Origin: an uncultured Salinisphaerales bacterium
GTDB lineage: Bacteria > Pseudomonadota > Gammaproteobacteria > Nevskiales > Nevskiaceae
Length of the DNA stretch: 64,000 nucleotides
NCBI GenBank assembly: GCA_964507195.1
Contig: CAZDPA010000001.1
Span: forward strand, 19,648-83,647
Direction of reading: 5' to 3'
Numbering within the stretch: position 1 is the first letter of the stretch; each line of letters opens with the position of its first letter. The position numbers and the translations under genes were made by a program. The notes beneath the pieces are model-generated. The model had not been told where the DNA came from, ran no database searches, and was given only the letters and a program-made list of their open reading frames with translations. Below are positions 20,083 through 54,507 of this stretch, piece by piece.

Positions 20083-20856
20083 CTAGCCCTTTGTCACCCA
20101 AGGTGCCGGGGTGCGATTGCGAAACGCGCTGATACCTGCCGCAGCCTCCTCCGAGCGGAACAGGCTCATCGACAGTTTTGTCGTCCACCCGAAAGCCTCA
20201 TCGCGCGGAAGATGTGGTACTCGCACGACGAGCTGCTTGGTGGCTGCCAATGCTTTCGGCCCACCTAACATCAGCTTGCCAACGATCTCGGAAACCCTAT
20301 CGTCCAAATTGTTCCGCTCAACGGCGTAGTTCAATAAGCCGACATCCGCGGCACGCAGCGCGGAAATGCGCTCGCCGGACAGGAACAGCTCCATCGCATC
20401 GCCGTAGCGCATCTTCGGCAGGCAAACCACCGAGATTACCGCCGGCGCAACACCGAGTCGTACCTCGGTAAAGGCCAGATTCACGTCGTCTGTCGCCACC
20501 GACAAATCGCAGGCCGCGGCCAGTCCGACTCCGCCTCCCATGCAATGCCCAGCTATACGCGCTACCACAGGCTTCGGCGACTGCTGGATCAGATCAAGAA
20601 TGTCGACAAGCGCGAACCGAGGATCGCTCGTGCGATTCTCCTTCAGGTCTGCGCCTGCGCAGAAGGTGTTTCCAACATGCGTCAACACAATTACGCGCAC
20701 TGCGTCATCAGCGATGGCCATGCTCAGATGACCACCGAGTGAGTCAAGCAACTCGGCGCTCAGTGCATTCTTGTTGTCTGGGCGATTCAGCGTGATTGTG
20801 GCCGCACCTCGTACAGCGCAGTACAAGGTGGCAGCAGTTGATGCATCAATAGTCAT
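20083..20856 (-). CDS. Enoyl-CoA hydratase/isomerase (crotonase) family protein
   Basis: ITLNRPDNKNAL, FCAGADLKE and GHCMGGGVGLAAACDL crotonase motifs. The second ATG (20856) has a GGAAGA purine tract upstream. Last gene of the reverse-strand operon. Confidence 0.88.
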   Translation of the reverse strand: MTIDASTAATLYCAVRGAATITLNRPDNKNALSAELLDSLGGHLSMAIADDAVRVIVLTHVGNTFCAGADLKENRTSDPRFALVDILDLIQQSPKPVVARIAGHCMGGGVGLAAACDLSVATDDVNLAFTEVRLGVAPAVISVVCLPKMRYGDAMELFLSGERISALRAADVGLLNYAVERNNLDDRVSEIVGKLMLGGPKALAATKQLVVRVPHLPRDEAFGWTTKLSMSLFRSEEAAAGISAFRNRTPAPWVTKG

Positions 20857-39097: not shown

Positions 39098-39176
39098 CGG
39101 TGCTGCTCTTCGAACCACGAGCGGCTCGGGTGAGTCAATTTGAAGCGGTGGCGGGGCTATGCCTGCAGGAGAAACA

Positions 39177-39974
39177 ATGCGAATAAGCTTGGCCCAATAT
39201 GCATTGGGCGCGGATATGGGCGCCAATCTCGCCAAAGCGTTGGCCATGATGAAGCGGGCTTCACAGTGTGAAGCTCAACTAGTTGTCTTTCCGGAATTGT
39301 GCCTCAGTCCCTTTTTTCCGCAGTACTCAGGGCAGGACGCCTCAAAGTATCTGGTATCAATCGATGACGAGCCCATCCGGAGATTTCGAGCGACGTGCAG
39401 AGATCTGAGAATTTCAGCATCCCCGAACGTGTACCTGAGAGAAGGTGACAATTCGTTTGACGCATCATTGATGATCGATGCGGAAGGGATTAGTCACGGC
39501 GCATCAAAGATGGTGCACATCGCTCAAGTGCCCTGCTTTTATGAGCAAGACTATTACACGCCGTCTGATACGGGTTTCAAGGTATACGACACATCACTTG
39601 GCCGGATCGGTATCGTAGTTTGTTTTGATCGCCACTATCCGGAGAGTATTCGCACCTGCGTCGTGCGCGGTGCCTCGCTGATTCTCATCCCCACAGCCAA
39701 CACGCGCGATGAGCCACGCGACTTGTTCGAATGCGAATTGCGAGCGGCCGCTATGCAGAATGGCGTATTCATCGCCATGTGCAACAGGACCGGCCGAGAA
39801 GGCGAGGTCACATTCTGCGGCGAATCAATCATTGTCGATCCGTTTGGCAATGTCGTGAAGAAAGCGTCGACAGGCGAGGAACTGCTGCTGGCCGACATCG
39901 ATCTTTCGCAGGTGGAAGTGGCGCGGCGCAAGCGCCCATATCTTCCGCTACGGCGACCCGAGTTGTATGAATGA
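39177..39974 (+). CDS. Carbon-nitrogen hydrolase (nitrilase superfamily) protein
   Basis: GGAG lies 5 nt upstream of the ATG at 39177. VVFPELCLSPFF (Glu) and IGIVVCFDRHYPE (Cys) are catalytic-triad contexts. Confidence 0.88.
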   Translation: MRISLAQYALGADMGANLAKALAMMKRASQCEAQLVVFPELCLSPFFPQYSGQDASKYLVSIDDEPIRRFRATCRDLRISASPNVYLREGDNSFDASLMIDAEGISHGASKMVHIAQVPCFYEQDYYTPSDTGFKVYDTSLGRIGIVVCFDRHYPESIRTCVVRGASLILIPTANTRDEPRDLFECELRAAAMQNGVFIAMCNRTGREGEVTFCGESIIVDPFGNVVKKASTGEELLLADIDLSQVEVARRKRPYLPLRRPELYE

Positions 39975-40460
39975 CTGTACGGATGGCAGTACCGCATAAG
40001 CTAAACCTGACGCTATGAAATGCGATAAAAGCTGAGTGTCCCTGAAGCGGACAGTCCTGAAGGTCTCCGTTTGGCACCTTTGCGACAGTCACACGTCAGC
40101 CCTTTGCGGCTACCACGGGTAAATCAATCATGGCTCCAGAGCAGCCATTCAGGTCTGCACATATTGCGCGCCCCTCAACACCGCTGGACATTGCTTAGTC
40201 TCAGGGGCACTAGCCGCCGTTTATCGACGTAAAGTCCAAGATCGCAGCCGCGCAGGCTTTCGGACCGGCTGGTTCTTCGCTTGGAAGAGGGCAGCGCGAG
40301 GTAGCGATAGATGCTGATCTTTCGGCGCCGCGGCCTTCGGACGAGCGTTGATCGGCTCTCGGGAGTGCTCGATCACGACAAGGTCGTCAACGCGCCAGCC
40401 TACCTCTACAGGTATTCGTACCTCGCTCATTCACTTCACACCAATGCAGCTTCAACTAGG

Positions 40461-40721
40461 ATGGCACCTATGAAAATCAGGATCGTACTCTTGGTACTTA
40501 TTGCTTCAAGTGAGTATGCACACAGACCTGTCGACGGTAGCAATTACTTTGTCGCACCAAGTCACTCTTCTGTGGAGACGGTCACGAGTGGGCACAAGAA
40601 CTGGGGGCAATCCGGTATGAGAGAGCGACAGGGAGATCGTGTTTTCGTTGAGATGGCAGAAGATCAGAAGCCGCCTCTTGGAATCTATGAAGTGAGGCTG
40701 GCACGAACTTCAAAAGACTAG
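40461..40721 (+). CDS. Small hypothetical exported protein
   Basis: MAPMKIRIVLLVLIASSEYAH is a signal-like N-terminus (ATGs at 40461 and 40470). No homology recognised. At the left edge of the AT-richer island. Confidence 0.3.
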   Translation: MAPMKIRIVLLVLIASSEYAHRPVDGSNYFVAPSHSSVETVTSGHKNWGQSGMRERQGDRVFVEMAEDQKPPLGIYEVRLARTSKD

Positions 40722-40945
40722 GCTCCGTGCGGTTAGAGACCAGTGTGGGCGCGGCGGTGGGTCCCCATCTTGGAATCTAAAGCTGCAGCAGGAGCGATGC
40801 GCTAGGCCAGGGCGCGCGGGATGAGAGCGGACACGCGGATCTCGAGCTTCCGGACTGCATTGAGAGCGATAACGGACGCGTGGATTTCCGCGTCAAACGA
40901 CGGGTGTTTGTATCTACTGTCTTCTGAAAGCAGAGCCCCGGGGAA

Positions 40946-41449
40946 TCAATCTTGTTTGCCACTCTTAAAAAGAAGTCCAAGCAATCCCTTAATTGGCGTG
41001 CTGAAGGTGTCATAGGTTGTTTCTTCCTGTAGCTCGAAAGTTCCATCCGGCATCAATTTGATGGTCTTCTTTATTGTCTTGGGCTTCTCTGGGCCCAGCA
41101 TGTAGATGGCATACAGGGCGACCAGTGCAATGGTGCCGACTTCTAGAAGCGGCATATCCCGGTCCGCACCCGATATTGCTCCTTCAACAATATGCCGGGA
41201 CTCCTCTTGGTTCGACGAGTGCATGATCCACATAAGGGCAATGTCCCGAACTAGGTCTGGCTTTGATTCAAGTTCGCGCAAAGCTTGAACAATCACCTCT
41301 TGATTCTTCGATGCGCCCTCTAGTGCGCTTCTCATTTCTGCAGGAGACATGTCCCCGGATGCCTCAAATACTGAAGACTTTAGAATCTGAAGAATGGTTT
41401 CAGGAGTCGCTTTGATAGCATTCAGTCTGCTCACTACGTTCATATCCAT
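40946..41449 (-). CDS. Hypothetical single-pass membrane protein, translationally linked to the CHAT protease gene
   Basis: 167 aa. Helical N-domain, one TM (LLEVGTIALVALYAIYMLG) and a short Lys-rich tail. Its start overlaps the last 10 nt of the upstream CHAT gene (41440-41449). Confidence 0.6.
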   Translation of the reverse strand: MDMNVVSRLNAIKATPETILQILKSSVFEASGDMSPAEMRSALEGASKNQEVIVQALRELESKPDLVRDIALMWIMHSSNQEESRHIVEGAISGADRDMPLLEVGTIALVALYAIYMLGPEKPKTIKKTIKLMPDGTFELQEETTYDTFSTPIKGLLGLLFKSGKQD

Positions 41450-44400
41450 GCTCCTTCAATTACGAATGCGTGGGCCTGCCAAGCTGGAACCCCACGACCG
41501 ATGGCCGCTTCTACGGCATAAGCTAGCGCCTTCACGAGGGGGGCCCCATTGACGAAAATGGATATCGCATCATCGAGGATTGGCAACGCCAACTCAGCGT
41601 CGATCTTCCATCGTGGCGCGACCACAGCGTTCGTCCCTACGCTTGCCAGCATTGATGCAAAACTTGTGCGCTCGTCCAGACCGGAAATCGACACAGCGCC
41701 GCCTGAGCACGCGCCCAGGAAGATTGTCCTCGGTGCGATCTTTTGGTGCTCCAGCTCGTCCCATCCGAAACAATGCGCTCTGTTGGCGTCGAGCGTAGCG
41801 CCAAAGCTATAGCCTGGCGGCGCCATCCCCATATGGTCAATGATAAGGACTATTCCACGTTCGTCCTTCGAAATCTGCCCGTGGCATAGAACCTTCAGCA
41901 GATCAGTCCCCTCGAGCAGCCTGCGAAATGCTTCAGAGTCCGCAACTCCCGGTGGCGCGAGATCGAGCGCTAGGCCATTCGCATTCGCAACTTCCTTTAC
42001 TCTGTCTGCTGACGCCTGAAGGGCAGCGCGCACGGCGCTCGTTTCGTTCGATCGCGGCGAATGCAGGAGCCCCAGTCTAGGTCGAGGTGGTGCCGAGCCA
42101 TTTGCGGCGACGGCAATCTTTATCGCATGCCAGTCTGCCGCGTAGGACGTGGTCCACTTTGGAGCAAGTGCAATATGGTAGGGGAGGCCAGACATATTCA
42201 CGTGGTCGATGAACACAACGTGCCCGCCAGCGGGCAAAACCTTCTCCAAAAGACTTTTCAATGAGTCTTCGATGAGCTTCCAATGAGGTATCTCATGGGG
42301 TTGCCCCAGCCGGCCTTGGTGCCAGTTGTCGAGTCGAGCAACAATTTTGTCAGCTGCCTTGACCCAGTCGGTTTCGGCGTTGTTCTCAATAAACTCTGTT
42401 CGCACGTTCCCCGGAGAGACAAGGGTTGAGATCCCGAATACCTTTCCAGGAACATCGCACCATTCAATGACGACGAAAGGTTCGTGAACATTCCGAATCA
42501 TTTCGGCTGTTACGACACCGTCAAACGCATCAATGGCACTGTGGCTCTGCGTACGCATTGCTTTTCGATGGGCGTTACGCCGAAGCTCGGCGAGCAGCTG
42601 GATCTCACTTGCCGACCGACCTTGGGCAAGTGCAACGAGCGTCAATCGCCCAAGGGGATCATCCAGTGGAGAAAGCAACGCCATTGTGGCAATGCTCAGT
42701 GATACGCCGCCCGCCGACTCAGCGATCGCTTGAGGGATCGCTAGCACCATGTCACTAAAGCAATCTGGATTGTCTTGAACACCCGTTATCGCAACCTCGA
42801 TCACCGTTCGAGGCTCGAGAGTCAGATCAGCCTCGAGACAGATAAGCGCGTCGCGTCTCCAAAGCGCTTCTGCTTCTGAGCATTCAAACTCCTGAGCAAG
42901 CATGGCTGCAGAAAAGCAGGCGTTATGTGCTTCCCTGACATTCCTGCATTCCATCTGCTGATCCACTCTGTTGGAGAGGCGTGTCAGAACGGAGGCGACT
43001 ATCTGGAGGTGCTCCTCCGACCTCCGGACTTCAGTTGACGGTTGTCGAATGATTGCTGAGTAGGGCACTAAGGCCGCGTCAGGGATCTCTTCTAGATCCG
43101 GACACTCCTTGCGCAGTGCCGCCACGCGCTCCTGTTGTCCAAGCTGCGATCTTATTGCAATCTCACAGACGAGTAGACCAATGCGTGTGTCCCGCAGCTC
43201 AAACCCCCCGGCCATTCGCCGCGCATCGGCGAGAGCTTCGACAGCCTCAGCGGATCGGCCCATCTGAATGAGGGTAGTCCCGAGTGACTGCAGCGGCATG
43301 TATGATCGCCCATCGGTCAACTCGACTGCACGAGAGATACAGGGCATCGCTTCTGAAAAGCGACCCAACTCTCTCAGAAGAATTCCGCGATTGAGCCATG
43401 CAGTTGCCCTGTTGCCGTCAGTCGCATCGGGATCTCTTAGAGTGACGCTCAATGTAGTTTCCGCAACATCAAGAGCGGTTATCCGCTTTCCCAAAAGGCG
43501 AAGCGCATTGCTGCGTTCAGTCCAAAGGCAGCGTTGACTCGAAAGGCTGAGCGCATTCTCCCAGGGGGCTTGTTCTTCTCCTATCTTTGCAAGGGCGAGA
43601 ACCGGCTGCCCCAGAAGTTTCATCCGCTCGCCAAACCAGGCCAGTAGGGATGCCCTCTCCTCGATGTCACCTTCCGTTGAAGGCTCAAGAAACTCGAAGA
43701 GCGTCGTAACCGCATGAGCATCCTCGAACCAAGGTAGTCTCCATGCTGCAAGCAAGGTAGATATTGAGAGCTGACTGTTGCGACCCCGTATAGAGAGGAT
43801 TAGCTCGGCGAACTGCTTCGGAGTATGTTCTTCCGAACTCTTCGCTTCCACGGACTCCGCATTGCTCGGCGATGTTTTGATGTACAGGCCGCCTTTGAGC
43901 ACATCGTTCAGAATGTCGCCATGGCCGAGGTCCTCTGTCGCAGCGTCAAGCCGTTCGAACAGCGCTCGTCGGTCCTGAGAGTCCGGCGAAGATAGAATTC
44001 CGTTGACCACTGACGACACTGCGTTCCATGCGCCCTCATAGGTGATAGTTCGAGAAATCCTCTGCGCAGATAGTTGGAAACGGTCACCGTCCTCTTCCGA
44101 TTCCGCAGATCGTGCTTGCAATCTCATAAGCAGATAGGCGTAGGCCCAATCTACAGATCGTGGAGACTCGCGGCCGAGCATGGAATGAAGAGACGTATCG
44201 ACTGCAAGAAAATGAAAGCGTATCCGGGGGTCGATATCCTTTTCTGTAATCAAATTCCAAGTGACGTTAAGCATCTCCGTCACTCGATCGGCGACGAAGA
44301 TGACAGCTCCACAGCTGTCAACCAAGCGGGCCAAGACTTCTTCTAAAGTCTTTGTCGTTGTTAATGCCGCAATTCCAATAGACCAGCTTTGAATCGTGTG

Positions 44401-44970
44401 GACGATGAGCTCGTAAATTACTTCCAACGTACGCGCACGGTCGTCAACAAGACCATCCGTACTACCGGAGTGCACGCCAAATTTCGGCACGATTCCGTGC
44501 GCGCCAACTAGCATAGCGCTCAAAATCTCGCCTTGAAGGCCTTGCCAGCAACGAACGGCTTCCTGTGGGTTTACGGGATTGAGGTGAGGGAGGGGATATT
44601 GTCGAGCGGTCGATTTCACCTTTTCGGCGAATACGGATTTGAACTCCTCTAGGTTAGCGACCCGCTGTAGAGTGGGGCTTTCACCAAGCGATTTGGTGAG
44701 TGGCGACAGAACGTCACGCGCGTTGTCTTCTGGATTGAATCCCTGGTCCAGGAGGACAAGCTTGTTCTCAACTAGAAAGTATCCGACTAGGCTCTGGGAA
44801 ATCGATTCTATTCCGCCGCAATGTGGGCAATCGGCAAGGCCAACCCGCTCCGTGTACAGATCGAAGACATCCGTTGTTCGCAGAGCCATCAATAAACGCC
44901 ATCTTTGGTCTGCTGGAGCCTCCTTTCCGCAGTCACTCGATCTACAGACAATCATGATCGCCCCCGTCAC
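41440..44970 (-). CDS. Zn-ribbon / helical / TPR / CHAT-domain (caspase-like) protease
   Basis: 1176 aa. N-terminal Cys pairs CRSSDC and CPHCG (CpXC-like ribbon). Central TPR-like helices (ATAWLNRGILLRELGRFSEAMPCISRAVEL). C-terminal CHAT dyad contexts LKVLCHGQ (His) and TIFLGACSGG (Cys). No signal peptide. Confidence 0.85.
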   Translation of the reverse strand: MTGAIMIVCRSSDCGKEAPADQRWRLLMALRTTDVFDLYTERVGLADCPHCGGIESISQSLVGYFLVENKLVLLDQGFNPEDNARDVLSPLTKSLGESPTLQRVANLEEFKSVFAEKVKSTARQYPLPHLNPVNPQEAVRCWQGLQGEILSAMLVGAHGIVPKFGVHSGSTDGLVDDRARTLEVIYELIVHTIQSWSIGIAALTTTKTLEEVLARLVDSCGAVIFVADRVTEMLNVTWNLITEKDIDPRIRFHFLAVDTSLHSMLGRESPRSVDWAYAYLLMRLQARSAESEEDGDRFQLSAQRISRTITYEGAWNAVSSVVNGILSSPDSQDRRALFERLDAATEDLGHGDILNDVLKGGLYIKTSPSNAESVEAKSSEEHTPKQFAELILSIRGRNSQLSISTLLAAWRLPWFEDAHAVTTLFEFLEPSTEGDIEERASLLAWFGERMKLLGQPVLALAKIGEEQAPWENALSLSSQRCLWTERSNALRLLGKRITALDVAETTLSVTLRDPDATDGNRATAWLNRGILLRELGRFSEAMPCISRAVELTDGRSYMPLQSLGTTLIQMGRSAEAVEALADARRMAGGFELRDTRIGLLVCEIAIRSQLGQQERVAALRKECPDLEEIPDAALVPYSAIIRQPSTEVRRSEEHLQIVASVLTRLSNRVDQQMECRNVREAHNACFSAAMLAQEFECSEAEALWRRDALICLEADLTLEPRTVIEVAITGVQDNPDCFSDMVLAIPQAIAESAGGVSLSIATMALLSPLDDPLGRLTLVALAQGRSASEIQLLAELRRNAHRKAMRTQSHSAIDAFDGVVTAEMIRNVHEPFVVIEWCDVPGKVFGISTLVSPGNVRTEFIENNAETDWVKAADKIVARLDNWHQGRLGQPHEIPHWKLIEDSLKSLLEKVLPAGGHVVFIDHVNMSGLPYHIALAPKWTTSYAADWHAIKIAVAANGSAPPRPRLGLLHSPRSNETSAVRAALQASADRVKEVANANGLALDLAPPGVADSEAFRRLLEGTDLLKVLCHGQISKDERGIVLIIDHMGMAPPGYSFGATLDANRAHCFGWDELEHQKIAPRTIFLGACSGGAVSISGLDERTSFASMLASVGTNAVVAPRWKIDAELALPILDDAISIFVNGAPLVKALAYAVEAAIGRGVPAWQAHAFVIEGAWI

Positions 44971-45167
44971 CCAAACAAGCGCCTCTACTGCATCTACGAC
45001 TCTGTGAAGGCGCTTCCCTTCACATTACAAGCATGCCCGATGCGGGTGACCTTAGAGGAGTCCGTGCTAAGGGCGATCTGACTCAATGCGACGGAGTCGA
45101 GGTCGAGGCTCTGAGGTCGCGCGTGCCTGAGCGCGGATCGACGCCCGCCAGTCGAACTTCATTTCAC

Positions 45168-45821
45168 TCATGGCTTCCTAATCGACACGACCTGGTGAGC
45201 CCGCGAACGTCTAAGCGAAAGCACATCTAGTTGAAGCTTCTCCGTTTCCAATCGAAGCCTCTCGATCTCTAGATGATGTGTACTAACACCCCTCTCTAGG
45301 ACCTCAATTTCCAGCTCCAGCTTTCGGTTTTGGAGCAGGCGAATGGCGGCCTCGTCGGCATCGTCCTTATGCCAACTCACCATTCCCCAGAAACACATGA
45401 TCATTCCAAATCCAAGTAGCGGAATGATGGACCACCAATACAGCTCGAGCGCCTTACTCCAGGGCGAAAGGTCCCTCAATTGATCCTTCAGCTTCTTTGT
45501 GGCTTCCTCAGCGTCCTTGAGTTCTTTTTCCGCAAATCGAAGGGCATTCTTTCGCTCTGGAATTGGGTATGGAACAAAGCTCGGTTGGCGTGGTGAGGTA
45601 ACGCCATCTTTCAGATCTTCAACCCAGAAGCTCAGCGACTGCGTATTCTCCCACGAGCGAAAGTGCGCCGCGGCGAGTTCGCTCTGTTGCCAACTTTGAA
45701 AACTCAGATAGGCGGCGAAAACCAGTATCAAGCCGCCTAGCAAGATCAGGCGCAAGCCCGAGATCGCAAAGAAGCGATTCAAGCTGGAAGTAGGCAGAAT
45801 AGGGAATCCGCTGAAGTTCAT
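45168..45821 (-). CDS. Hypothetical two-TM coiled-coil membrane protein
   Basis: 217 aa. TM1 is LRLILLGGLILVFAAYLSF and TM2 is WWSIIPLLGFGMIMCFWGMVSW. Heptad-like segments EKELKDAEEATKKLKDQL and LELEIEVLERG...LEIERLRLETEKLQLDVLSL. Confidence 0.6.
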   Translation of the reverse strand: MNFSGFPILPTSSLNRFFAISGLRLILLGGLILVFAAYLSFQSWQQSELAAAHFRSWENTQSLSFWVEDLKDGVTSPRQPSFVPYPIPERKNALRFAEKELKDAEEATKKLKDQLRDLSPWSKALELYWWSIIPLLGFGMIMCFWGMVSWHKDDADEAAIRLLQNRKLELEIEVLERGVSTHHLEIERLRLETEKLQLDVLSLRRSRAHQVVSIRKP

Positions 45822-45919
45822 TTGCGGCCATCCAAGTTCTCACGAAAAACCGTAATCGCGCCCGATCTCTGAAGCGACGCTGCGCCCGATTCCGGCAGCC
45901 GCTACGGCGGGTTCAACGC

Positions 45920-47899
45920 TCAGTGCGCGAGGGCGGTAGAAGTCGAATCTCTCCACATCGCGGGAATGATTTCGGCTACCTCAGCCGGATCAATTAGAGT
46001 CGTAGGTTCCTCGCGAGGAACGAAAGTGAACTCAGACAAGCTGCCGCCTGGAACTTCGCGCACTCTTTCGCCGGCTTTCGCGACCAACGCGGTTGCGGGA
46101 CGGGTTCCACTAGAGGTCACGCCTCCTGTAATTCTGATTGAGTAGATTGTTGAGGCAGGGAGCACGCTCCCTGCCGCGGTAGTGAAAGTGCCACTTTGTA
46201 CTCGCCCGTCGATGGTAGTCCCACTCTTTAATCGAACGACATCGTCGTAAACGGAGATCGCGGTCTCAATGTCGAGCACTCGGCCATCCGCTACAAATCC
46301 TACAAGCGTTGGATTGCGGCGGGCAGTTGCGATTATCCGGTTATAGAGCTTCAGGGGATCTGCGTTCTGGTTCAGGGTCTTAATGATTGTCGTTGCAAGC
46401 GTCACTAGCGGGGCCGAGATGGAAGTGCCTTGTTCATAGACGACCTGTTGCCCCCCACGAAAAACGGGGACATGACAGCCGGGCGCGGCGATAGTGACTG
46501 AGGTTCCTCGGCCAGAGAACGAAGCCAGCTTGTTGCCGGGGACCAATGCCGCAACTGATATGAGCACGGCCCCGTTTGTATTCGAGAAGTTGGCCGGGAA
46601 TACATTCTCAGCTTCCACGTCACGCTTCGAATTCCCGGCTGCTGCAACGATTAGTTCCCGGCCATTCGAGACAACATTTGCGACAGTTTCGTCTTTGCTG
46701 CCGCTTTCCCAGCTCCAGTTAACGATGATTGGCGTTCTATCCGCCAAGCTCCTCGTATAGATAAGAGATTCGGCTAACCCTGCGGCAGGGATGTCAAAAT
46801 GGGCCCCCTGTGTAGCTGTGCTGAAGGTTCTCGATACGATCGAGAGCTGCTTCAATTCCACGAAGCGTTTAAGCAACATTCGATCCGAAAACAAACTGGT
46901 GCCCCCGGCGACGCTCGACACGGCTAGGCCGTGATAGCCCATATCGTAGTCCGAGAAAGCATTGGGAAAGCCCCCCTTTGCCGGGAGATTTGTTCCGACG
47001 GTGTCATTCGGGTATCCGTTGCCGTCTAAATCTGCAACGGGAGGTGATGGGCGCTCGCCCCGTTTAGTCGCCAGATTGAGGAGGCTCGAGTCATTCTCGG
47101 AGATTCCGGTATCGACGATCACCGCGATAGCAGGATCTCGTGATATCGGCCGTTCGGGATGAGTACTCACCTCATTCAGGTAGCGCCGAAGAGTCTCAGA
47201 TATGCGTGCCGAATCGATCGGCCACTTGGAGTCGGCCCCCGAGCAAAGTGCAACTTCTGCAGGGCTCAATACTGGCTTTAGCGCGGGTACAAGCTTGACC
47301 TGCGACCCTAGCTCTGCCCCGACTACGCCGGGCGAATCGGATAGCGCGGCAAGAAAGTCAGTTGAGCTGGCAAGCACGCCCGGCATCAATGGAAAGCTAA
47401 CTGCTTTGCCGATAAACGGGAATGTGAGCTTCTGACCAGGGATCAACTTGTTGAGATCCACACCCGGGTTCAATTCTTTCAGCCGCGCCTGAGTCTGAGG
47501 TCCATCTGATCCTATGAAACGAGCTGCCAACCCAAGCGTCGAATTGCCGGCGGGTACCGTAACAATCGTTTCTGCAGATCGATACGCGCAGGGGTATACC
47601 TTCAAGGTTCTTCTTTCCGTGGATTCGAGAACTGTAGCGTCATTGAGATCTCGCGCTTGCAATCTCAATGCTTCATCCGCATACCCGCATTGGCGTTTGA
47701 GAAATTGATCCAGAGTCTCGTTCTCAAATGCGTCGATGAGTGTTGGCTGCGCGATCTCAGCGATGCGCGAATTGACGGTTTGGACATCATCCAATCGCCA
47801 AGGTGAAACACTCACAGTTACCCAGTCATCGGAATATGCGCTCTGGCACGCGCAGATTCCCAAGATCAGTACGAACCCATGTCGCTTGTGGCCGTTCAA
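45920..47899 (-). CDS. Secreted subtilisin-like serine protease (S8) with N-terminal LysM-like domain
   Basis: Signal peptide MNGHKRHGFVLILGICACQSAYS. LysM-like TVPAGNSTLGLAARF...LKELNPGVDLNKLIPGQKLTFP. S8 triad contexts VIVDTGI (Asp), GYHGLAVSSVAGG (His), AAAGNS (oxyanion Asn) and GTSISAPLV (Ser). Confidence 0.88.
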   Translation of the reverse strand: MNGHKRHGFVLILGICACQSAYSDDWVTVSVSPWRLDDVQTVNSRIAEIAQPTLIDAFENETLDQFLKRQCGYADEALRLQARDLNDATVLESTERRTLKVYPCAYRSAETIVTVPAGNSTLGLAARFIGSDGPQTQARLKELNPGVDLNKLIPGQKLTFPFIGKAVSFPLMPGVLASSTDFLAALSDSPGVVGAELGSQVKLVPALKPVLSPAEVALCSGADSKWPIDSARISETLRRYLNEVSTHPERPISRDPAIAVIVDTGISENDSSLLNLATKRGERPSPPVADLDGNGYPNDTVGTNLPAKGGFPNAFSDYDMGYHGLAVSSVAGGTSLFSDRMLLKRFVELKQLSIVSRTFSTATQGAHFDIPAAGLAESLIYTRSLADRTPIIVNWSWESGSKDETVANVVSNGRELIVAAAGNSKRDVEAENVFPANFSNTNGAVLISVAALVPGNKLASFSGRGTSVTIAAPGCHVPVFRGGQQVVYEQGTSISAPLVTLATTIIKTLNQNADPLKLYNRIIATARRNPTLVGFVADGRVLDIETAISVYDDVVRLKSGTTIDGRVQSGTFTTAAGSVLPASTIYSIRITGGVTSSGTRPATALVAKAGERVREVPGGSLSEFTFVPREEPTTLIDPAEVAEIIPAMWRDSTSTALAH

Positions 47900-48693
47900 T
47901 GTCTACAGCCTGTTGCTTTGCCTGACAAGCCGCACAGGTCAATCTTGTTTTGCTCAGACCAGACTTTCAGGAACGTATTGGCCGATGAGCTCGAAAGATT
48001 TGCCAATCGCGAAGTATCTGATGCCTTCCCGGCACTCGTTAGTTCGACCTGAGAGTTAGCCGCGATCAAATACCGAGGGCTGTTGGCTGTGTCACCCGTC
48101 GCGAACGCTGCAGAACCACTATCGCCCCGGCAAAGAGCGGCGCCTCTATTTACTCGCACATATGTAGCTGCGCTCTCTGGAGGGCTGACTACATAGGCCT
48201 CTCCTTCTCTGAACTTGCCGTCCCGACCCGAGAAGTTGGATTTCGTGCATCCAAAGCCCGTTAGAAGCACTTCGGCATCCTTACCCATGCCCTTTCCCTG
48301 GGTGTCGATTACTTCATAAGGGGCAACGATCTCCTTGCTCAGTAAACATAGTGCTAGGTCGGGCGCGTCGTTGAAAAAATCTGACGCCGGAGTGCAAGTG
48401 GCCTGAACGTCGTTTGGTAAATTGACCGCCACTCCGGCCGGGACACAATGAGCTGCGGTTAGCAGTGCCTTGCTTGCGACTAACGTGGCCCCACAGTATT
48501 TATTTCCAATCACTGAAAACATCGACGCTGGATAGTCGCTCGTGCGCGCTATCCGTGCATTGATCAGTGCTGTCCCAGTGCCGTCTTGCTTGAGGTCGGA
48601 TACTGGAATGAACGAAATGCAATCCGCAGATTTGGCAGAAGGCATTGATACAAACAATGCTGAGGCCACGGCCACTATCAGCAATCGATTCAC
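47896..48693 (-). CDS. Secreted trypsin-like serine protease (S1)
   Basis: Signal peptide MNRLLIVAVASALFVSMPSAKSA. LLTAAHCV (His), PDLALCLL (Asp) and CRGDSGSAAF (Ser). Its stop overlaps the S8 start by 4 nt (47896-47899). Confidence 0.88.
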   Translation of the reverse strand: MNRLLIVAVASALFVSMPSAKSADCISFIPVSDLKQDGTGTALINARIARTSDYPASMFSVIGNKYCGATLVASKALLTAAHCVPAGVAVNLPNDVQATCTPASDFFNDAPDLALCLLSKEIVAPYEVIDTQGKGMGKDAEVLLTGFGCTKSNFSGRDGKFREGEAYVVSPPESAATYVRVNRGAALCRGDSGSAAFATGDTANSPRYLIAANSQVELTSAGKASDTSRLANLSSSSANTFLKVWSEQNKIDLCGLSGKATGCRH

Positions 48694-48698
48694 GATCG

Positions 48699-50033
48699 CT
48701 ACTCCGCCGCTGCCCCGCCTGCTGCTGCAGTGCCACCGCCACCTGCCGGAGCAATAAGTCCCTTCAGCCTCCCTTCGACGCCATCTCCCAGGAAGGCCCA
48801 GGAAACGGAGAAGAAGAAGGCGGCTTCATTTCTTGAGTCCATTGGATCGATGGATTCGCCGACCGGGATGACATCGCCGTCTTTGAGACCCCGTGGAAGA
48901 ACATCGACCTTCCCAATATTCCCGCCTAGTGTTACGAACAACTGGTTTTGCCAAATCAGCGATACGCCAATGAGGTAGTTCAGGTCGCTAGAGTTGTTGT
49001 TGTAGGCGAGTCCAAATGTTCCGCCGAACGCCGGAGACAGCGTACTGCTCCGATTGAAGTTCCATGCTGGATCGGTCACATGGAGCATTGCGCCCAATCC
49101 CAGCGCCCAGTCGTCGTCGGCGCCCGAATTGCGACGGACAAATTGTTCCGCGACAGCGCTACCGTCTGGAGCGGGTGTAGGGGACGTCCGCGTGCCCAAC
49201 GTGTACTTATCGCTGACCAGCTTGGAAACTACGAATGCGCCGGCTGGGATGATGGACAATTCGGATGGAATCGGGGTGAATACGACAGTTGTATATGAAC
49301 TTAATTCTGTCGCCTTGTCGTCCTTGAGGACTATCTTGATTGGTTCTTCGCGCTCGTAACGAGCAAGGGCGGCTTCAAGGGCATCTCGCGCCCTTGTGTA
49401 CTTGATGATCGAAGCGGTGCTGATCGTCGTATCGGCATTCGAATCTGCGGCCTCCATCGACGCCTTCTCGTCCAGGTACGGGCCGTATTCCTCTAGATTT
49501 TCAGGACTTGCGCCGAACGCAGCGATTGCGTCCACAAGGGCTTGCGGTTCGGCAACGTTCCGCTCGATCTGAACAGCGTATCCGGCAATCCCTTCGGAAT
49601 GCACAATAATCTCCGACTCCAACTTGTCTCCACCGGCGGTTGGATCGCATTCGATGCCGCTCTCGATCAACGCGACCAACGCCGTCGTCTTCGTATTTAG
49701 GTCCGCGACTACTGCGTTGACCAATTCGTCAATGGATGCCGCTTCTGTGCTCGTGTCCTGTGTCGCTTGGTCAGTTCGTTTTGGGCGAACAGGTTTTGCT
49801 CCAATGACACTGAGCTTGAAATGACTAGCGCAAGTATTGATGACCTGAATCTTGAACTTGTCGTTCTTCTTCAGATCTAGCTGATTGCTTAGCGGGCTGC
49901 GATTGGAATGATCAATTTGAGCAATTTGAATCACTGGCGCAGGAGTGTTGCTTGGTGAATCTTCCGCATGAACAACAAGCGGCACGAGAAAGCCCACAGC
50001 TAAGACCGCCTGCGAAACGCTAATGTGATTCAT
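48699..50033 (-). CDS. Hypothetical secreted protein with beta-barrel-like C-terminal half
   Basis: The likely start is the ATG at 50033 (MNHISVSQAVLAVGFLVPLVVHAEDS signal peptide). The C-terminal ~170 aa shows alternating-hydrophobic strands (LGLGAMLHV, FGGTFGLAY, YLIGVSLIW, AAFFFSVSWAF), then a Gly/Ala tail. No family recognised. Ends 6 nt before the S1 start. Confidence 0.65.
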   Translation of the reverse strand: MNHISVSQAVLAVGFLVPLVVHAEDSPSNTPAPVIQIAQIDHSNRSPLSNQLDLKKNDKFKIQVINTCASHFKLSVIGAKPVRPKRTDQATQDTSTEAASIDELVNAVVADLNTKTTALVALIESGIECDPTAGGDKLESEIIVHSEGIAGYAVQIERNVAEPQALVDAIAAFGASPENLEEYGPYLDEKASMEAADSNADTTISTASIIKYTRARDALEAALARYEREEPIKIVLKDDKATELSSYTTVVFTPIPSELSIIPAGAFVVSKLVSDKYTLGTRTSPTPAPDGSAVAEQFVRRNSGADDDWALGLGAMLHVTDPAWNFNRSSTLSPAFGGTFGLAYNNNSSDLNYLIGVSLIWQNQLFVTLGGNIGKVDVLPRGLKDGDVIPVGESIDPMDSRNEAAFFFSVSWAFLGDGVEGRLKGLIAPAGGGGTAAAGGAAAE

Positions 50034-50278
50034 GTGAATGCGCCCCCCAGCGCTAAAACAAGTACCGACTCCCCGAACAGCGTGCGCACCTTGCCCCAAC
50101 AAATTTATCGTCGTCCCATTAGATGCAACTGTCAACTTACACAGGCGAGCGTGATACTCAAGCGCACTGCCAAACTAGAGCATTCGTCCAATATTGTAAG
50201 AAATCTCCCAACCCTAAATAGGGGATGTAAAGCGCATAGCAGCCGTGACGTCACTCCGGAGTTGGATAGCACAGCGAT

Positions 50279-50608
50279 TTAGACTCCGATCCGATTGGCA
50301 AGGAGTCCCGACTGCGCTAGCGCTTCTTGCAATGCAAAGCCTGACTTCATGGGAACGTAGTTCTTCCTAAACTGCGCATCTATTCCCCTATATAGGGGGT
50401 GCAGGCCCAGGGAGGTCAGATGCGCAAGGAACCCAGCGATCAGCCTGCCTGCGCGAGATTTACACTCGGCGTGCGATAACGTTATTGCATGAATCCTTAA
50501 GAGCAAAGGAAGATCGATGCTGCTAACGCGTCTATGAGTGGCGGCATACTTCTGCCGCGGCGGTACAGCGTGGAGATAGCCTGTGGACTGGGTTGTAACT
50601 GATGACAT
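50279..50608 (-). CDS. Hypothetical protein (doubtful)
   Basis: The ORF-track 139-aa frame is trimmed to the internal ATG (MSSVTTQST...). No motif recognised. Its 5' end collides with the divergent YaaC-like gene start. Confidence 0.25.
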   Translation of the reverse strand: MSSVTTQSTGYLHAVPPRQKYAATHRRVSSIDLPLLLRIHAITLSHAECKSRAGRLIAGFLAHLTSLGLHPLYRGIDAQFRKNYVPMKSGFALQEALAQSGLLANRIGV

Positions 50609-51749
50609 TTTGAAGGAAACCTGGAGCAGGCTTCTGGAGTTCGCGAATATTGATGTTGCAGTCAATGCAATTGCCAGTAGGCATGGACCAGCCAGCACTT
50701 CAGCTCTGCGACAAAACTACCAAAAGCAGGCCCAGCAGATTAGATCCTGTCTCTTGCAATCGCGGGAGTACTTTGAGGCAGCCTCGATCAGTTCGTTAAT
50801 TACGAGCCCAAACCACGCCTACTATGGCTTGGTGGCTCTAGCATCGAGCATCATGCTCATGAGAGGCGATGGAGGTAAATCGCTCGACATTGTTCGGCAG
50901 GACAGATCGAACAGAAACCACGGGATGTCGTTCTCAACCAGTATTCGAAGAACATCGGCAATTTCTGATCTGAAAATATTGAAGGACAGCTTTATCGAAG
51001 TACGTCCTTCTGGAAATCTGTCTATCTGGTATGAAGTGTTGCCAGAGAAAATTCTGAACTGCGGAAAGACGATGCGTGTCGGTGAAAAATCAACACACAC
51101 CACGTTCGGCGTGGTAGGAGTTACCCCTTCGTTACCATTCGCGAAACTCGTGGGGACGAAGAAAAGTGTGCTCGATCTAATGAAGTACTGCCCAGATTTG
51201 AACGGCGAACTCCGGCGATACGGAGTTAGTCCGACTTGTTCGCGATTCAATCACGAAAAGTCTATATTCGTCAGAGACGGTAAGGTATTGGACAGCTGGT
51301 CTATCCACGGCGCAGGTTCGCCAAGTGCGCTCGAAGAACTGCTGAAGGCATTTAAGGTTTCTGCACGAAACATTGGCTCGATGTCTGTCAACATGGAAGA
51401 TGGAGACAATGGCGGAATTATCAGCTACGAATTCAAAAGAGAGGATTTCCCGATAGCGCTTAACTTTCCGAGCTCTAGAGTATCTCTAAGCTTAGAGAAC
51501 ATCTGCTATGCGGATGAAATAGACACGCACGAGTTCGTGGACATGTATATGACCGCATTCGGACTAAGCATGCTAGCTCGGTATTTTCCTGATTTATGGG
51601 TATCGTGCCTTGAGTCCAACTGTTTGTCTGCGAAGTTAATTGAGAAATTGTCCGCAGTCTTAGTGAAGAAGGCGCCTATGCTCGGCTTGTCTCTTCTTTC
51701 GGGGCGAGAATGCTTTATTAGCACTCACAGACAGCCATGGGCTCCATAG
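50583..51749 (+). CDS. YaaC-like family protein
   Basis: 388 aa. N-terminal QQIRSCLLQSREYFEAASISSLITSPNHAYYGLVALASSIMLMR and C-terminal FVDMYMTAFGLSMLARYFPDLW resemble the conserved N- and C-terminal blocks of YaaC-like proteins, recalled from memory rather than searched. Start is the GTG at 50583 or the TTG at 50610. Confidence 0.55.
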   Translation: MDWVVTDDILKETWSRLLEFANIDVAVNAIASRHGPASTSALRQNYQKQAQQIRSCLLQSREYFEAASISSLITSPNHAYYGLVALASSIMLMRGDGGKSLDIVRQDRSNRNHGMSFSTSIRRTSAISDLKILKDSFIEVRPSGNLSIWYEVLPEKILNCGKTMRVGEKSTHTTFGVVGVTPSLPFAKLVGTKKSVLDLMKYCPDLNGELRRYGVSPTCSRFNHEKSIFVRDGKVLDSWSIHGAGSPSALEELLKAFKVSARNIGSMSVNMEDGDNGGIISYEFKREDFPIALNFPSSRVSLSLENICYADEIDTHEFVDMYMTAFGLSMLARYFPDLWVSCLESNCLSAKLIEKLSAVLVKKAPMLGLSLLSGRECFISTHRQPWAP

Positions 51750-51976
51750 AGTGCGATGTTCCACCACAGCGTGTGGAGGTTTTTGTCTGAGGACTGTGGG
51801 AGATCGGGCTTGCCCCTGTTGTCCCGGCGAACAACGCAGGCGCGCTGCCGGCAAGTTGTAGTGTCAGGCGACACGGGGATTTCGACTGCGATCCCGCGCG
51901 ATGCTGGCGGCGCATTGCGTGCCGGCCAACGACTCATGGGCCATCCGAAGGTGCCCGCGAGATCGATTTCGATTGA

Positions 51977-52079
51977 GGGATTTTTTAAAGCGATCCCGGA
52001 TTTTCAGACGCAGCGCAAGCCGCAGAAGTCATGAGGCATCTGTGACAATTCGTCAGGGATCTTTAAAGCAATTCCTCGG
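51977..52079. repeat. Pair of imperfect ~23-nt direct repeats
   Basis: GGGATTTTTTAAAGCGATCCCGG (51977-51999) and GGGATCTTTAAAGCAATTCCTCGG (52056-52079), with shared core GGGATyTTTAAAGCrATyCC. They lie in non-coding DNA between the YaaC-like gene and the IS remnant. Confidence 0.5.
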
Positions 52080-52295
52080 CTCAGTCACAGTTGACGAGAT
52101 ACTTCCGAGGATGCTTAACTTCCTGACATGAAAGAATATTTTCAAGTTCAGGAAATGGTGGCCGGGGACGCCACCGAAATAGCCACCCAAGTAGCTGATA
52201 AAACGCGTCAATCAGCTGACGTTTTAGAGCATATACCGGCAGATCTACCGTTATGGGGCAAACTAGATTCAGCCTGCGCGAAATAGGCGTGGTCA

Positions 52296-52548
52296 AGTAC
52301 AACCGAAGCCCCGTGCGCCGGTCCTTGGCCGGACGTCTTGCATCAGCCTCCAGCGCCTGGAGCAGCCAGTCTGCATGGGCATCGAGTTTGCGCGGCCCGG
52401 CGGGCCGCTCGTACTTCATCTCACTGCGTGCTGGCTCGTTGAGCCACTTCTTGACCGTGTTTCTCGTCAGACTGGTTCGCCGGGCAATCTCGCTGATCGA
52501 CAGGCCATCCCGGAACCGCATTCGCCGCACTTTTGCGTACATCGCCAT
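52296..52548 (-). pseudogene. istA: IS21-family transposase (IstA) N-terminal remnant
   Basis: MAMYAKVRRMRFRDGLSISEIARRTSLTRNTVKKWLNEPARSEMKYERPAGPRKLDAHADWLLQALEADARRPAKDRRT matches the HTH N-terminus of IS21-family IstA. Similarity ends after about 85 residues, and the catalytic DDE region and istB are missing. Confidence 0.8.
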
Positions 52549-52787
52549 GGTGTGCACCTCGTCTTCCTGCTGGGGCTGAAACCCGCAGGCTAGTGAAGAA
52601 CATCCTGGTCAATTTTCAACGCGCGGCAGGCCAGGGCGCCCGAGATGACGGTCAGGTCTGCAATGCGGCGCCTTCTCAGTTCTCTCGCTCCACGACAATG
52701 CAACAAAGCGCCCAACATATTTGTCACTCTCGGCGCAAACATCTGGAGCCATTCTTTTCTGGTTGTGCGGGCTTTCCGCTCCTGACA
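52296..52787 (-). mobile_element. Truncated IS21-family element (left end plus 5' part of istA)
   Basis: The outer boundary is inferred from the reverse-strand TGTCAGGAGCGG starting at 52787 (IS21-type ends begin TGT...). The inner boundary is the point where IstA similarity stops. The end assignment is tentative. Confidence 0.45.
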
Positions 52788-52811
52788 CGCGTTGTTGAAG
52801 TGTACTTGCGT

Positions 52812-52833
52812 AATCTTATGCACGTGCATAAGA
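52812..52833. promoter_or_regulatory. Perfect 22-bp palindrome ATCTTATGCACGTGCATAAGAT (operator candidate)
   Basis: Read directly; it is self-complementary over all 22 positions. It lies 60 nt upstream of the esterase ATG and about 25 nt from the presumed IS end. Confidence 0.55.
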
Positions 52834-52893
52834 TATGCAAATCAGCAGCCTGAAAAAGGCGCTACTGCATCAAAAGCAGGAGGAGATCAGTGC

Positions 52894-54507
52894 ATGAAGC
52901 AGCGGGCTGTTCATCTGATTTATGGACGTCACGGCGGATGCCTAAGGGCGGTCTTGCTCCTTTCTGCATTCGCCGCTATGGCCTGCACGCCGAAAATCGA
53001 ACCAGAGCCAGAGCCCGCCGCGACGGCAAGTTTGCGCACCACAGCCGGGGTGCTGCGGGGCGGTGTCTCGACAGAAAACATTGCCTCATTCCGCAACATT
53101 CCTTACGCGGCTCCGCCGATTGGCCCACTCCGCTGGAGAGCGCCGCAGCCCGCGTTGCAATGGAGCACTGAACGTGAAGCGAGACGCTTTGGCAACGATT
53201 GCCTTCAGAACCGCGAGGCTTGGGATCGCGCCAGCTCAGCCCAGCCGCTGAGTGAAGACTGCCTCTATTTAAATGTCTGGACGGCATGGCCACTGGCGCC
53301 GTCGGCACCGCGTCCGGTCATGGTCTGGATTCACGGCGGCGGTCTGGCCAGTGGCACTGGGAATTCGCCGCTGTCTTACGGACAACAACTGGCCGAGCGT
53401 GGGGTGGTGTTGGTGACCTTCAACTATCGCCTCGGCCGGTTTGGATTCTTTGCGCATCCAGCCTTACGTGACACATCGTTAGCGGAGCCAATCGGCAACT
53501 ACGGCTTGATGGATCAACTCGCTGTGTTGAAGTGGGTTAAGGCGAACATCAGTGCGTTTGGCGGGGATCCGGGCAACGTAACCGTATTCGGTGAGTCAGC
53601 GGGCGGGCTGTCGGTACTGCAGCTGATGCTCACGCCTTCGGCGCGCGGTCTGTTCCACAAGGCGATCGTCCAATCGGGAGGCGGGCGTCTGCCTATGGCA
53701 AGACTACGCGAGGACTTGCCCAGTAACCCCTCTGCTGAAACTCGTGGCCGCAAGTTCGCCGAATCGGTCGGTTTGAGAGACGCGACCGCGACGGCTCTGC
53801 GCGCGCTGCCGGCCGAAACGGTACTCGGCAAGATCAGTTTGATCGAGTGGGACAAGGCGCAATGGACAGGGCTTGCCGTCAACGGCATTGACGTTCAAAG
53901 CGAGGCGGTCGCAGGCTTCGTTGCTGGGCGGCAGATGAGAATTCCGCTGCTGATCGGAGCCAATGGGGCAGAGTTCAGCGGCCTACCGGGCTTCATCCTC
54001 AGCCGCATCAATCGCGATCTCGAACCGTTGCTGGGCGCGGGTGTTGAATCGGTGAGGCGCGCCTACAGCGATGAAGACGCCTTTGAGCGCAACTTGTCCA
54101 GCGATTTTGGCTTTGTCGAGCCTGCACGGACGATCGCAGCCGCAGCCTCCGCAGTCCAGCCAACCTACCTGTACCGCTTCAACTATGTAGCCGAATCTCG
54201 CCGCAAGGACTCGCGCGGTGCGGGACATGCGTCCGACGTCGCCTACATCTTCGGTCGTTTGCAAGCAACTGGTCACGAAATCGTCGAGGCGGACCGCGCG
54301 TTCTCGCGTCTTCTGAGCGACTACTGGACGACATTCGCGAAGACCGGGGTTCCAGCCGTTCCCGGGCGTTCCGCTTGGCAGCCCTACAGCAAGAGCAACG
54401 ATCAGCTATACGAGTTCGGGCTTCACGGCGAGACGACGATGAAGCCGGCCGCCGCGCCTTGGATTGATGCAATTACGCGCGTGATGGCGTCTGGCGATTC
54501 GCACTGA
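52894..54507 (+). CDS. Carboxylesterase type B family lipoprotein
   Basis: AGGAGGAG precedes the ATG at 52894. Lipobox-like AAMAC. VMVWIHGGGLASG oxyanion region and FGESAGG nucleophile motif. Confidence 0.9.
   Translation: MKQRAVHLIYGRHGGCLRAVLLLSAFAAMACTPKIEPEPEPAATASLRTTAGVLRGGVSTENIASFRNIPYAAPPIGPLRWRAPQPALQWSTEREARRFGNDCLQNREAWDRASSAQPLSEDCLYLNVWTAWPLAPSAPRPVMVWIHGGGLASGTGNSPLSYGQQLAERGVVLVTFNYRLGRFGFFAHPALRDTSLAEPIGNYGLMDQLAVLKWVKANISAFGGDPGNVTVFGESAGGLSVLQLMLTPSARGLFHKAIVQSGGGRLPMARLREDLPSNPSAETRGRKFAESVGLRDATATALRALPAETVLGKISLIEWDKAQWTGLAVNGIDVQSEAVAGFVAGRQMRIPLLIGANGAEFSGLPGFILSRINRDLEPLLGAGVESVRRAYSDEDAFERNLSSDFGFVEPARTIAAAASAVQPTYLYRFNYVAESRRKDSRGAGHASDVAYIFGRLQATGHEIVEADRAFSRLLSDYWTTFAKTGVPAVPGRSAWQPYSKSNDQLYEFGLHGETTMKPAAAPWIDAITRVMASGDSH

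Follow-up and report, generated by a model that had tools for sequence, protein, structure and literature searches.

A CHAT protease and its small membrane-helix partner form a conserved, mobile two-gene cassette with a probable role in anti-phage conflict

Introduction

What does a long, multi-domain CHAT protease do with a small, single-helix protein whose gene overlaps its own stop codon? The question is raised by two minus-strand genes in a 64,000-nucleotide (nt) stretch of contig CAZDPA010000001.1 (assembly GCA_964507195.1), from an uncultured Salinisphaerales bacterium; the whole of this stretch is called the window below. In GenBank the two products are annotated as “CHAT domain-containing protein” and “hypothetical protein,” and no description of a system made of a CHAT protease and a small transmembrane (TM) protein was found in the literature searched, subscription-only papers not being covered. 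Bacterial and eukaryotic immunity are linked by a central theme, cell death set off by a protease (as from caspase to gasdermin, from Craspase to Csx30 and in SAVED-CHAT cascades), and a sequence-only reading of the locus had suggested, by analogy with Craspase/Csx30 and with protease/gasdermin pairs, that the protease might cleave a membrane-targeting partner. Sequence comparisons across other genomes now indicate that the pair is probably a mobile two-gene conflict module directed against phage. How it would work is a more tentative matter: the preferred account, reached by analogy and given somewhat less than an even chance of being right, is that within this mobile defence cassette the protease cleaves the small partner, unleashing a conserved helix on the membrane.

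The two genes are:

41440..44970, minus strand: CHAT protease gene; open reading frame (ORF) from GTG at 44970, 1176 amino acids (aa)
40946..41443, minus strand: gene of the small partner; the conserved ATG gives 165 aa, and the first ATG, at 41449, gives 167 aa

Conservation of the gene pair

Both ORFs, of 1176 and 167 aa, are present in the ORF list as the earlier reading had described them. Is their adjacency more than accident? Nineteen loci from about 18 lineages were examined, from Bradyrhizobium, Photobacterium, Streptomyces and metagenomes; loci with close relatives of the small gene were recovered by exact look-up or pattern scan, distant ones from members of a profile search. The pair is found in Alphaproteobacteria, Gammaproteobacteria and Actinomycetota. 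Conservation of the small ORF beside CHAT homologues had been set beforehand as the test of the proposed link, and it was found from both sides: a CHAT homologue or remnant lies directly upstream of the small gene in all 19 loci, even where the small proteins are only about 20% identical, and all six of the CHAT homologues examined have the small gene downstream. Chance could hardly account for such conservation. Beside the pair there is no conserved third gene, the flanks differing at every locus, and the cassette appears to be both horizontally mobile and self-contained.

The distant loci retain the large gene in recognizable form. In those from metagenomes (L015-L020) the upstream protein is homologous over the TPR-CHAT core, from about position 430 of the family profile to its end (E 1e-66 to 1e-78); the high-GC subfamily (L015-L018 and L020) aligns to the profile only from that position. 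The large gene of L015 is broken up into three ORFs, with profile matches at E 3.4e-12 and 1.7e-45. The large homologue upstream on a Streptomyces plasmid (L021; E 6e-89) matches from about position 248, and that on a Photobacterium replicon (L022; E 8.5e-106) from about position 167. All of these distant homologues (L015-L022) carry His and Cys motifs of their own and end in the same “...EGxW” C-terminus.

Two apparent exceptions dissolved on inspection. L004, which looked like a counter-example lacking CHAT, has lost most of the gene to a TniA/TniB-type transposon that left a 114-aa CHAT remnant; L016, which seemed to have a trypsin in place of CHAT, has a 949-aa protein with no Pfam match on record that is a CHAT homologue (E 1.7e-77). 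Decayed copies occur in L004 (750-5760, the transposon insertion, with the small gene intact) and, as breaks in the CHAT frame, in L011 (2716-6226) and L006 (28-3266). Such copies are consistent with a costly, frequently lost gene; some of the breaks could be assembly errors.

The small ORF is a real gene under purifying selection, judging from its codons: the ratio of nonsynonymous to synonymous substitution (dN/dS) is 0.08-0.23 where synonymous sites are unsaturated (0.15 in the two closest pairs), and third codon positions vary most. Seventeen close homologues of its product are 46-63% identical to it. An exhaustive profile search recovered 196 clusters at 50% identity (E <= 1e-3; 131 at E <= 1e-10), with members nearly all of 160-200 aa.

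The junction between the genes is compact:

41440..41457, minus strand: coupling junction; GAAGGAG at 41451-41457, ATG at 41441-41443 overlapping the TGA stop at 41440-41442

A 10-nt overlap had been described, and holds from the first ATG; the conserved start is the second ATG (41443), however, giving a 4-nt ATGA overlap with the CHAT stop, and some close homologues of the small gene lack the upstream first ATG. The GAAGGAG, 7 nt upstream of the ATG, also encodes E-G-A codons of the CHAT gene. Start and stop overlap in every close-subfamily junction inspected (10 distinct sequences and the window), as ATGA or, in L012, GTGA; GAAGGAG is kept in most of them, reading GAGGGAG in L011 and GAACGAG in the degraded L004. 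The 4-nt overlap likewise occurs in L021, L022 and L023, while the high-GC junction is TGA, 10 nt and a start (L016, L017, L018, L020) and the called genes of L015 overlap by 17 nt. From this arrangement the small gene is predicted to be translationally coupled to the CHAT gene. Promoter and terminator scans gave matches no commoner than in shuffled sequence.

Pairwise divergences of the small and CHAT proteins are correlated across loci (Mantel r 0.98, exceeded in 0 of 5000 permutations), which argues that the pair is inherited as a unit, without partner swapping. Coupling and near-perfect co-divergence would suit an obligate stoichiometric binder at least as well as a substrate, and so count in favor of a different account, in which the small protein is a regulator: a securin-like co-translational chaperone and pseudo-substrate inhibitor, and/or a membrane tether or sensor that holds the protease latent at the inner membrane. 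A trigger, either phage-induced membrane perturbation or a phage protein, would then free the protease, which would cut other host or phage proteins, and the cell would die or arrest. This account, possible if somewhat unlikely, is nearly as good as one in which the small protein is a cleaved effector.

Defence and mobile-element context

What company does the pair keep elsewhere? Defence systems verified with PADLOC (2023 release) adjoin it in four of the 19 loci, Gabija in two independent ones:

L010: Gabija (GajA 5e-221, GajB 2e-176)
L011: Gabija (GajA 1e-256, GajB 3e-219)
L016: DISARM and Bil (DrmA 8e-102, DrmB 3e-34, BilC 6e-11)
L021: Shedu (SduA 5e-18)

Other copies lie in an integrative and conjugative element (ICE) with type IV secretion system genes, in integrase-bearing elements, in RepA/PIN plasmid-like DNA or next to transposases. 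Strict pairing across three lineages, often beside known anti-phage systems, makes this probably an uncharacterized defence module, the association with defence resting on those four loci and on the mobile-element context.

The same settings would also suit a pair that is not immune at all, being either an addiction or stabilization module (a cognate protease checking a membrane toxin) or a protease of niche housekeeping function that has a membrane adaptor. Copies are frequent on plasmids, ICEs and in transposon-rich regions, and the distribution is very patchy, the close subfamily being present in 1 of about 185,000 species-representative genomes; patchiness and decay are typical of defence genes too, however. 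A 1170-aa multi-domain TPR protease would be atypical as an antitoxin, and the repeated Gabija, DISARM, Bil and Shedu neighbors, with the variable N-terminal region of the protease, are hallmarks of immune sensors. A non-immune role is accordingly rated improbable.

Two loci have expanded operons. In L016, a gene for a cytosolic trypsin-like protein (9564-10493; Pfam Trypsin_2; PADLOC candidate PDC-S45, E 8e-11) shares 4 nt with the end of the small gene, so that this locus is a three-gene variant with two proteases, situated between Bil and DISARM genes. The second protease gene hints at a proteolytic output beyond the small protein, a point in favor of the regulator account. In L021 (2866-4766; Streptomyces sp. 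NBC_00467 plasmid NZ_CP107895.1) a gene for an IetA-like AAA+ ATPase (PADLOC IetA, E 2e-37), itself preceded by two small hypothetical genes, ends where the CHAT gene starts; this suggests an expanded variant of ATPase, CHAT and small protein, reminiscent of IetAS (ATPase and protease).

Additional candidate conflict genes were seen in Bradyrhizobium sp. Arg816 (L001) and a related metagenome contig (L002), where another conserved overlapping pair lies about 0.7-0.8 kb downstream (L001 11317-15260, L002 6265-10361). One product, of about 1130-1195 aa, has TM segments and a P-loop (GPSGRGKT) and no PADLOC match; the other, of 185 aa, appears by eye to have a signal peptide. This second pair had been considered as a paralogue of the cassette in L001, and is actually a TM P-loop NTPase with a secreted protein; it may be another uncharacterized conflict module. 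About 7 kb from the CHAT pair, L001 also encodes (17137-20472, minus strand) a 1111-aa protein with SAM, AAA and nucleotide-cyclase domains, the cyclase domain matching Pycsar PycC models (E 2e-17). This protein may have a signaling role in defence, adding to the island character.

The CHAT protein

Although the ORF can be read from GTG 44970, the true start is probably ATG 44955 (M6 in the numbering used here), which would give 1171 aa, because full-length homologues of 44-50% identity begin at the equivalent of M6 and the European Nucleotide Archive copy has 1171 aa. A GGGGG run sits 6-7 nt before this ATG. The NCBI-derived copy (1149 aa; window 44890-44970) begins at Met28, and so loses the first Cys pair of the four-Cys cluster. 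The parts of the protein are:

44791..44955, minus strand: N-terminal four-Cys zinc-ribbon-like region (C9, C14, C48, C51), putative; Cys pairs conserved
43681..44652, minus strand: helical scaffold, aa ~107-430; all-helical in the AlphaFold2 (AF2) model, subfamily-specific and variable between subfamilies, no Pfam match
42502..43680, minus strand: TPR/helical-repeat core, aa ~431-823; Pfam TPR, common to all homologues
41443..42483, minus strand: CHAT domain (caspase-like, clan CD), aa ~830-1176; Pfam, conserved motifs and Foldseek
41875-41889 and 41698-41715, minus strand: LCHGQ and GACSGG, the His1030 and Cys1088 motifs of the CHAT domain

A long helical region, TPR-like repeats and a C-terminal CHAT domain with LCHGQ and GACSGG had been proposed from the sequence, and on these Pfam, motifs and AF2 agree. 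Pfam places TPR_12 at residues 481-551 (33.1 bits against a cutoff of 30.1), with TPR_12, TPR_2 and TPR_1 together covering 481-552, and CHAT (PF12770) at 978-1153 (30.3 bits against a gathering cutoff of 24). In the AF2 model (predicted local distance difference test score, pLDDT, 66) residues ~107-823 are all-helical and 832-1172 alpha/beta; the TPR core is the best-modelled part (pLDDT about 80-94), and matches the corresponding region of the distant partners at E 1e-66 to 1e-106 by profile. No TM-grade segment (maximum Kyte-Doolittle hydropathy over 19 residues, KD19, 1.55) and no signal peptide were found, so the protein should be cytosolic.

Is it likely to be an active protease? The Cys motifs (CRSSDC, aa 9-14; CPHCG, aa 48-52) and the dyad motifs (LCHGQ, aa 1028-1032, with His1030; GACSGG, aa 1086-1091, with Cys1088) are all kept in every homologue that covers them; in distant homologues the His and Cys motifs read xCHGL and SAACSSG, and are kept down to 25% identity. 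The catalytic dyad thus appears intact, and the Pfam score, the retained motifs and a fold like those of separase, DdvA and Craspase lead to the prediction of a competent protease.

Structural searches of the model with Foldseek returned separase (9hm7, E 2e-10), DdvA (8rw5, E 4e-9) and the TPR-CHAT subunit of Craspase (8d9h_E, E 3e-6; 7zoq_A, E 5e-6). By its predicted fold, then, this is a protein of the separase/Craspase-type TPR-CHAT architecture; at the sequence level, generic TPR proteins alone match the CHAT family profile among PDB sequences.

The N-terminus had been described as a four-Cys, CpXC-like ribbon. The four conserved cysteines are there, the pairs being kept in all four close homologues with an intact N-terminus and recurring in distant ones (CxxC...CxxC in Streptomyces, CxxC...CxC in Photobacterium), but the CpXC assignment did not hold up: no match to CpXC (PF14353) appeared in Pfam at E <= 10 for the N-terminal 120 aa or for residues 6-480, and the sole match of the N-terminal 120 aa was a chance-level one to Zn_ribbon_tTFIIB (E 0.061). 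With pLDDT below 50 across this region, the zinc-ribbon-like fold is putative. The first ~430 residues have no Pfam family and are largely subfamily-specific, as is typical of a sensor region.

The small partner protein

The 165-aa partner is divided as follows:

41162..41443, minus strand: N-terminal helical domain, aa 1-94, six helices; AF2 pLDDT about 74-88
41093..41167, minus strand: pre-TM motif A-D-R-D-M-P and hydrophobic helix LLEVGTIALVALYAIYMLG, aa 93-117; the family's most conserved part
40949..41092, minus strand: C-terminal module, aa 118-165, made up of a basic juxtamembrane stretch, an Asp-Gly beta-hairpin and a terminal helix

A helical domain, one TM helix and a short basic tail had been read from the sequence. 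The first two stand: in the AF2 model (pLDDT 73) residues 5-94 form six helices and 104-118 the hydrophobic helix, followed by a beta-hairpin and a helix at the C-terminus, and there is a single TM-grade segment (KD19 = 1.9). The supposed tail is instead a conserved module of about 45 aa, for which AF2 gives, at low confidence, strands at 125-132 and 138-145 and a helix at 151-164. Its flank is indeed strongly basic (155 K/R against 51 D/E over 34 members), and its Asp-Gly turn is widely kept (D133 in 131 and G134 in 148 of 156 family representatives). A LNxxxATPETILQILK motif in the N-terminal domain is retained within the close family.

The strongest conservation lies in and around the hydrophobic helix. 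Among the same 156 representatives, A93 is kept in 137, P98 in 139, E101 in 142 (with D in 10 more), Y111 in 150 and Y114 in 117, and an [L/M]-P motif near the helix is among the most conserved positions. Because polar residues inside it are conserved, the helix is likely to be functional (in oligomerization, pore lining or specific recognition) and not a mere anchor. This tells against the regulator account, since in a simple tether or inhibitor one would not expect the polar residues of the membrane helix to be kept more strongly than the soluble domain.

What other proteins does it resemble? Nothing was found in Pfam (including searches with 23 diverse members), NCBIfam, PADLOC, PHROGs or PDB, by sequence profile or Foldseek in the last case: the best profile match among PDB sequences was a designed repeat protein (E 0.0096), and the best Foldseek match of the model had E 0.68, with no gasdermin among the matches. 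There was no match to an anti-sigma or DNA-binding family, and no domain common to the small and CHAT proteins (hhalign probability 0.2%). The earlier analogy with Craspase/Csx30 and gasdermin pairs therefore survives as a matter of logic only, since neither its sequence profile nor its predicted fold relates the small protein to Csx30 or gasdermin.

Comparison with known systems

Separase and securin provide the best overall structural match: a long helical/TPR region followed by a caspase-like domain, with a small, tightly bound partner. They differ in that separase is a eukaryotic cell-cycle enzyme with no sequence-level relationship to the CHAT protein, and in that the partner here bears a hydrophobic membrane helix. 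That the best matches are enzymes themselves controlled by an inhibitor, securin, is a further argument for a regulatory small protein, though no securin-like or other known inhibitor fold was found for it with Foldseek or the PDB profile search. A regulator would leave the protease as the effector, and for this there are precedents: the stand-alone CHAT defence gene Borvo/BovA in PADLOC, and a published TIR-activated caspase-like protease system (10.1101/2024.10.24.620036). The output would follow the proposals made for CHAT systems of a single gene and for caspase-like Thoeris effectors.

The second-best structural match of the CHAT protein, DdvA, is a transmembrane anti-sigma factor of Myxococcus xanthus in which an N-terminal Zn-binding element and one TM helix are joined to a scaffold-TPR-CHAT region, and is found in a phage-defence setting (PMC11506125). 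It differs in being one polypeptide with a periplasmic TPR-CHAT and an extracytoplasmic function (ECF) sigma factor as partner; in the present pair a second protein carries the TM helix, and there is no linked sigma factor. Could the pair be a split version of such a device, in which cleavage by CHAT frees a cytoplasmic signaling domain of the small protein and so changes gene expression instead of killing? In DdvA a cytoplasmic domain with bound Zn is united with one TM helix and TPR-CHAT, and juxtamembrane self-clipping in trans has been proposed for it (PMC11506125); the small protein, with its helical domain, TM helix and short tail, recalls single-pass anti-sigma factors in layout. No conserved neighbor of the pair encodes a sigma or other transcription factor, however, the flanks being different in every locus; the CHAT protein, without TM segment or signal peptide, appears cytosolic where the TPR-CHAT of DdvA is periplasmic; and the small protein matches no anti-sigma or DNA-binding family. 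A signaling device of this kind is considered very improbable.

Craspase (the type III-E gRAMP/Cas7-11 with TPR-CHAT Csx29) has a protease of the same structural class as the CHAT protein, latent until triggered, and a substrate, Csx30, encoded in the same locus. The CHAT protein has, in addition, its N-terminal Zn-ribbon/helical region of about 430 aa. No Cas7-11 or CRISPR genes occur among the Pfam-annotated called genes around the pair at any locus with a gene table; activation cannot be RNA-guided through gRAMP.

Gasdermin-protease pairs (bacterial bGSDM; fungal HET-Q1/HET-Q2-like, and Q2L-6 with Q1-6) likewise consist of an adjacent multi-domain protease, often TPR plus CHAT, and a small membrane-acting protein, in an immune or cell-death setting, as is probable here; the partner in the present pair is a 165-aa, predicted all-alpha protein with a pre-formed TM-like helix, and not a beta-sheet pore former. 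Borvo (BovA), an anti-phage system, is likewise based on a CHAT protease, but is a single gene as against an obligate pair, and the CHAT protein matches the PADLOC BovA model only marginally and locally (E 0.0027, 14.7 bits, 56 residues around the catalytic Cys). In the EACC1/EACC2 systems (Kaur et al., 2020; Kaur et al., 2021, PMC8195603) a caspase-superfamily protease and a constant component, with variable sensors, are predicted to act in counter-invader conflict; there the constant component is fused to the caspase and partners are linked by EAD adaptors, whereas Pfam shows no EACC1 match in either protein of the pair and the two share no adaptor domain. The system is therefore outside the Craspase, gasdermin, Borvo, EACC1 and DdvA-type families, and alike to them in logic only.

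Proposed mechanism

Cleavage of the small partner is favored over the other accounts, and precedents for it have been established by experiment: the fungal TPR-CHAT protein Q2L-6 cleaves the gasdermin encoded beside it (PMC8851545), and Csx30 is cleaved by Craspase (PMC10028731; sites quoted in PMC11506125). In such a mechanism the variable N-terminal region of the CHAT protein (zinc-ribbon-like region and helical scaffold) would be the likely sensor of the trigger, the TPR superhelix the likely docking platform, and the CHAT domain with its His-Cys dyad the protease; the business end of the small protein would be its conserved hydrophobic helix and juxtamembrane module. The two proteins would be co-translated and form a latent complex. 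A phage-derived cue would lift the autoinhibition of CHAT, and the protease would then cut the small partner, most plausibly in a cytoplasm-exposed segment beside the helix; the freed helix fragment might oligomerize in the inner membrane, leading to collapse of membrane integrity and abortive infection. The physical complex, trigger, cleavage, membrane damage and defence phenotype are the inferred parts of this scheme.

Several observations weigh against it. On the structural side, the Foldseek TM-scores of the CHAT protein are only 0.15-0.30, and both models are moderate (pLDDT 73 for the small protein, 66 for the large). As for the cleavage itself, no conserved cleavage motif was identified. 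The positive-inside rule would set the basic C-tail of the small protein in the cytoplasm and the 100-aa N-domain outside, an awkward orientation for a protein without a signal peptide, and one that makes access of the protease uncertain; alternatively, the helix could be one that is not constitutively inserted. As for defence, PADLOC-verified neighbors occur at only four of the 19 loci, PADLOC found no known defence genes among the window's own neighbors of the pair, and tblastn found no homologue in 50,697 phage genomes, so that there is no support from prophage hotspots.

Surroundings in the window

Around the pair the GC content is lower over about 12 kb (window ~40000-52600; 0.51-0.56, compared with 0.57-0.63 in the flanks), a stretch located between metabolic genes and bounded by a CN-hydrolase gene (39159-39974) and a carboxylesterase gene (52792-54507). 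Besides the CHAT pair it holds a protease cluster, a YaaC-like gene (50583-51749, plus strand) and a resolvase-type helix-turn-helix fragment (52081-52557, minus strand). It is probably a horizontally acquired island; there are no tRNA genes anywhere in the window.

The protease cluster comprises four genes (45168-50135, minus strand) on the same strand as the CHAT gene and directly upstream of it. Their products are a 478-aa protein and a 265-aa trypsin-like protease, each with an apparent signal peptide and the former with a beta-barrel-like C-terminus as well, then a 659-aa S8 subtilase and a 217-aa protein with an apparent TM segment and coiled coil; these apparent features were read from the sequence. 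The subtilase gene begins 4 nt before the trypsin gene ends. Are they part of the system? None is conserved beside the pair at any other locus, they have no PADLOC match, and they look like a separate secreted-protease cluster. The trypsin-like protein was also considered as a counterpart of the trypsin in the L016 operon, to which it is not specifically related.

Significance

Whatever its mechanism, the cassette is a compact example made of two genes, with a partner protein to which no known effector or regulator is related, and the small-protein family (about 196 clusters, in at least three major lineages) gives a clean marker by which genomes can be searched for the system. A bolder proposal, which is speculative and on present evidence doubtful, is that the small protein represents a new family of minimal membrane executioners licensed by a protease. 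Of about 165 aa, with a single helix and unrelated to gasdermins, it would be held latent by, or bound to, a separase-like CHAT protease until caspase-type cleavage unleashed it to kill the infected cell. Bacteria would then have arrived independently at the logic of a caspase that activates a membrane killer, and mobile elements would have carried it across Proteobacteria and Actinomycetota. Should the small protein indeed be an executioner, it would represent a new minimal membrane effector and a new class of CHAT substrate; if it is instead a securin-like inhibitor, the pair would be a bacterial parallel to the control of separase.

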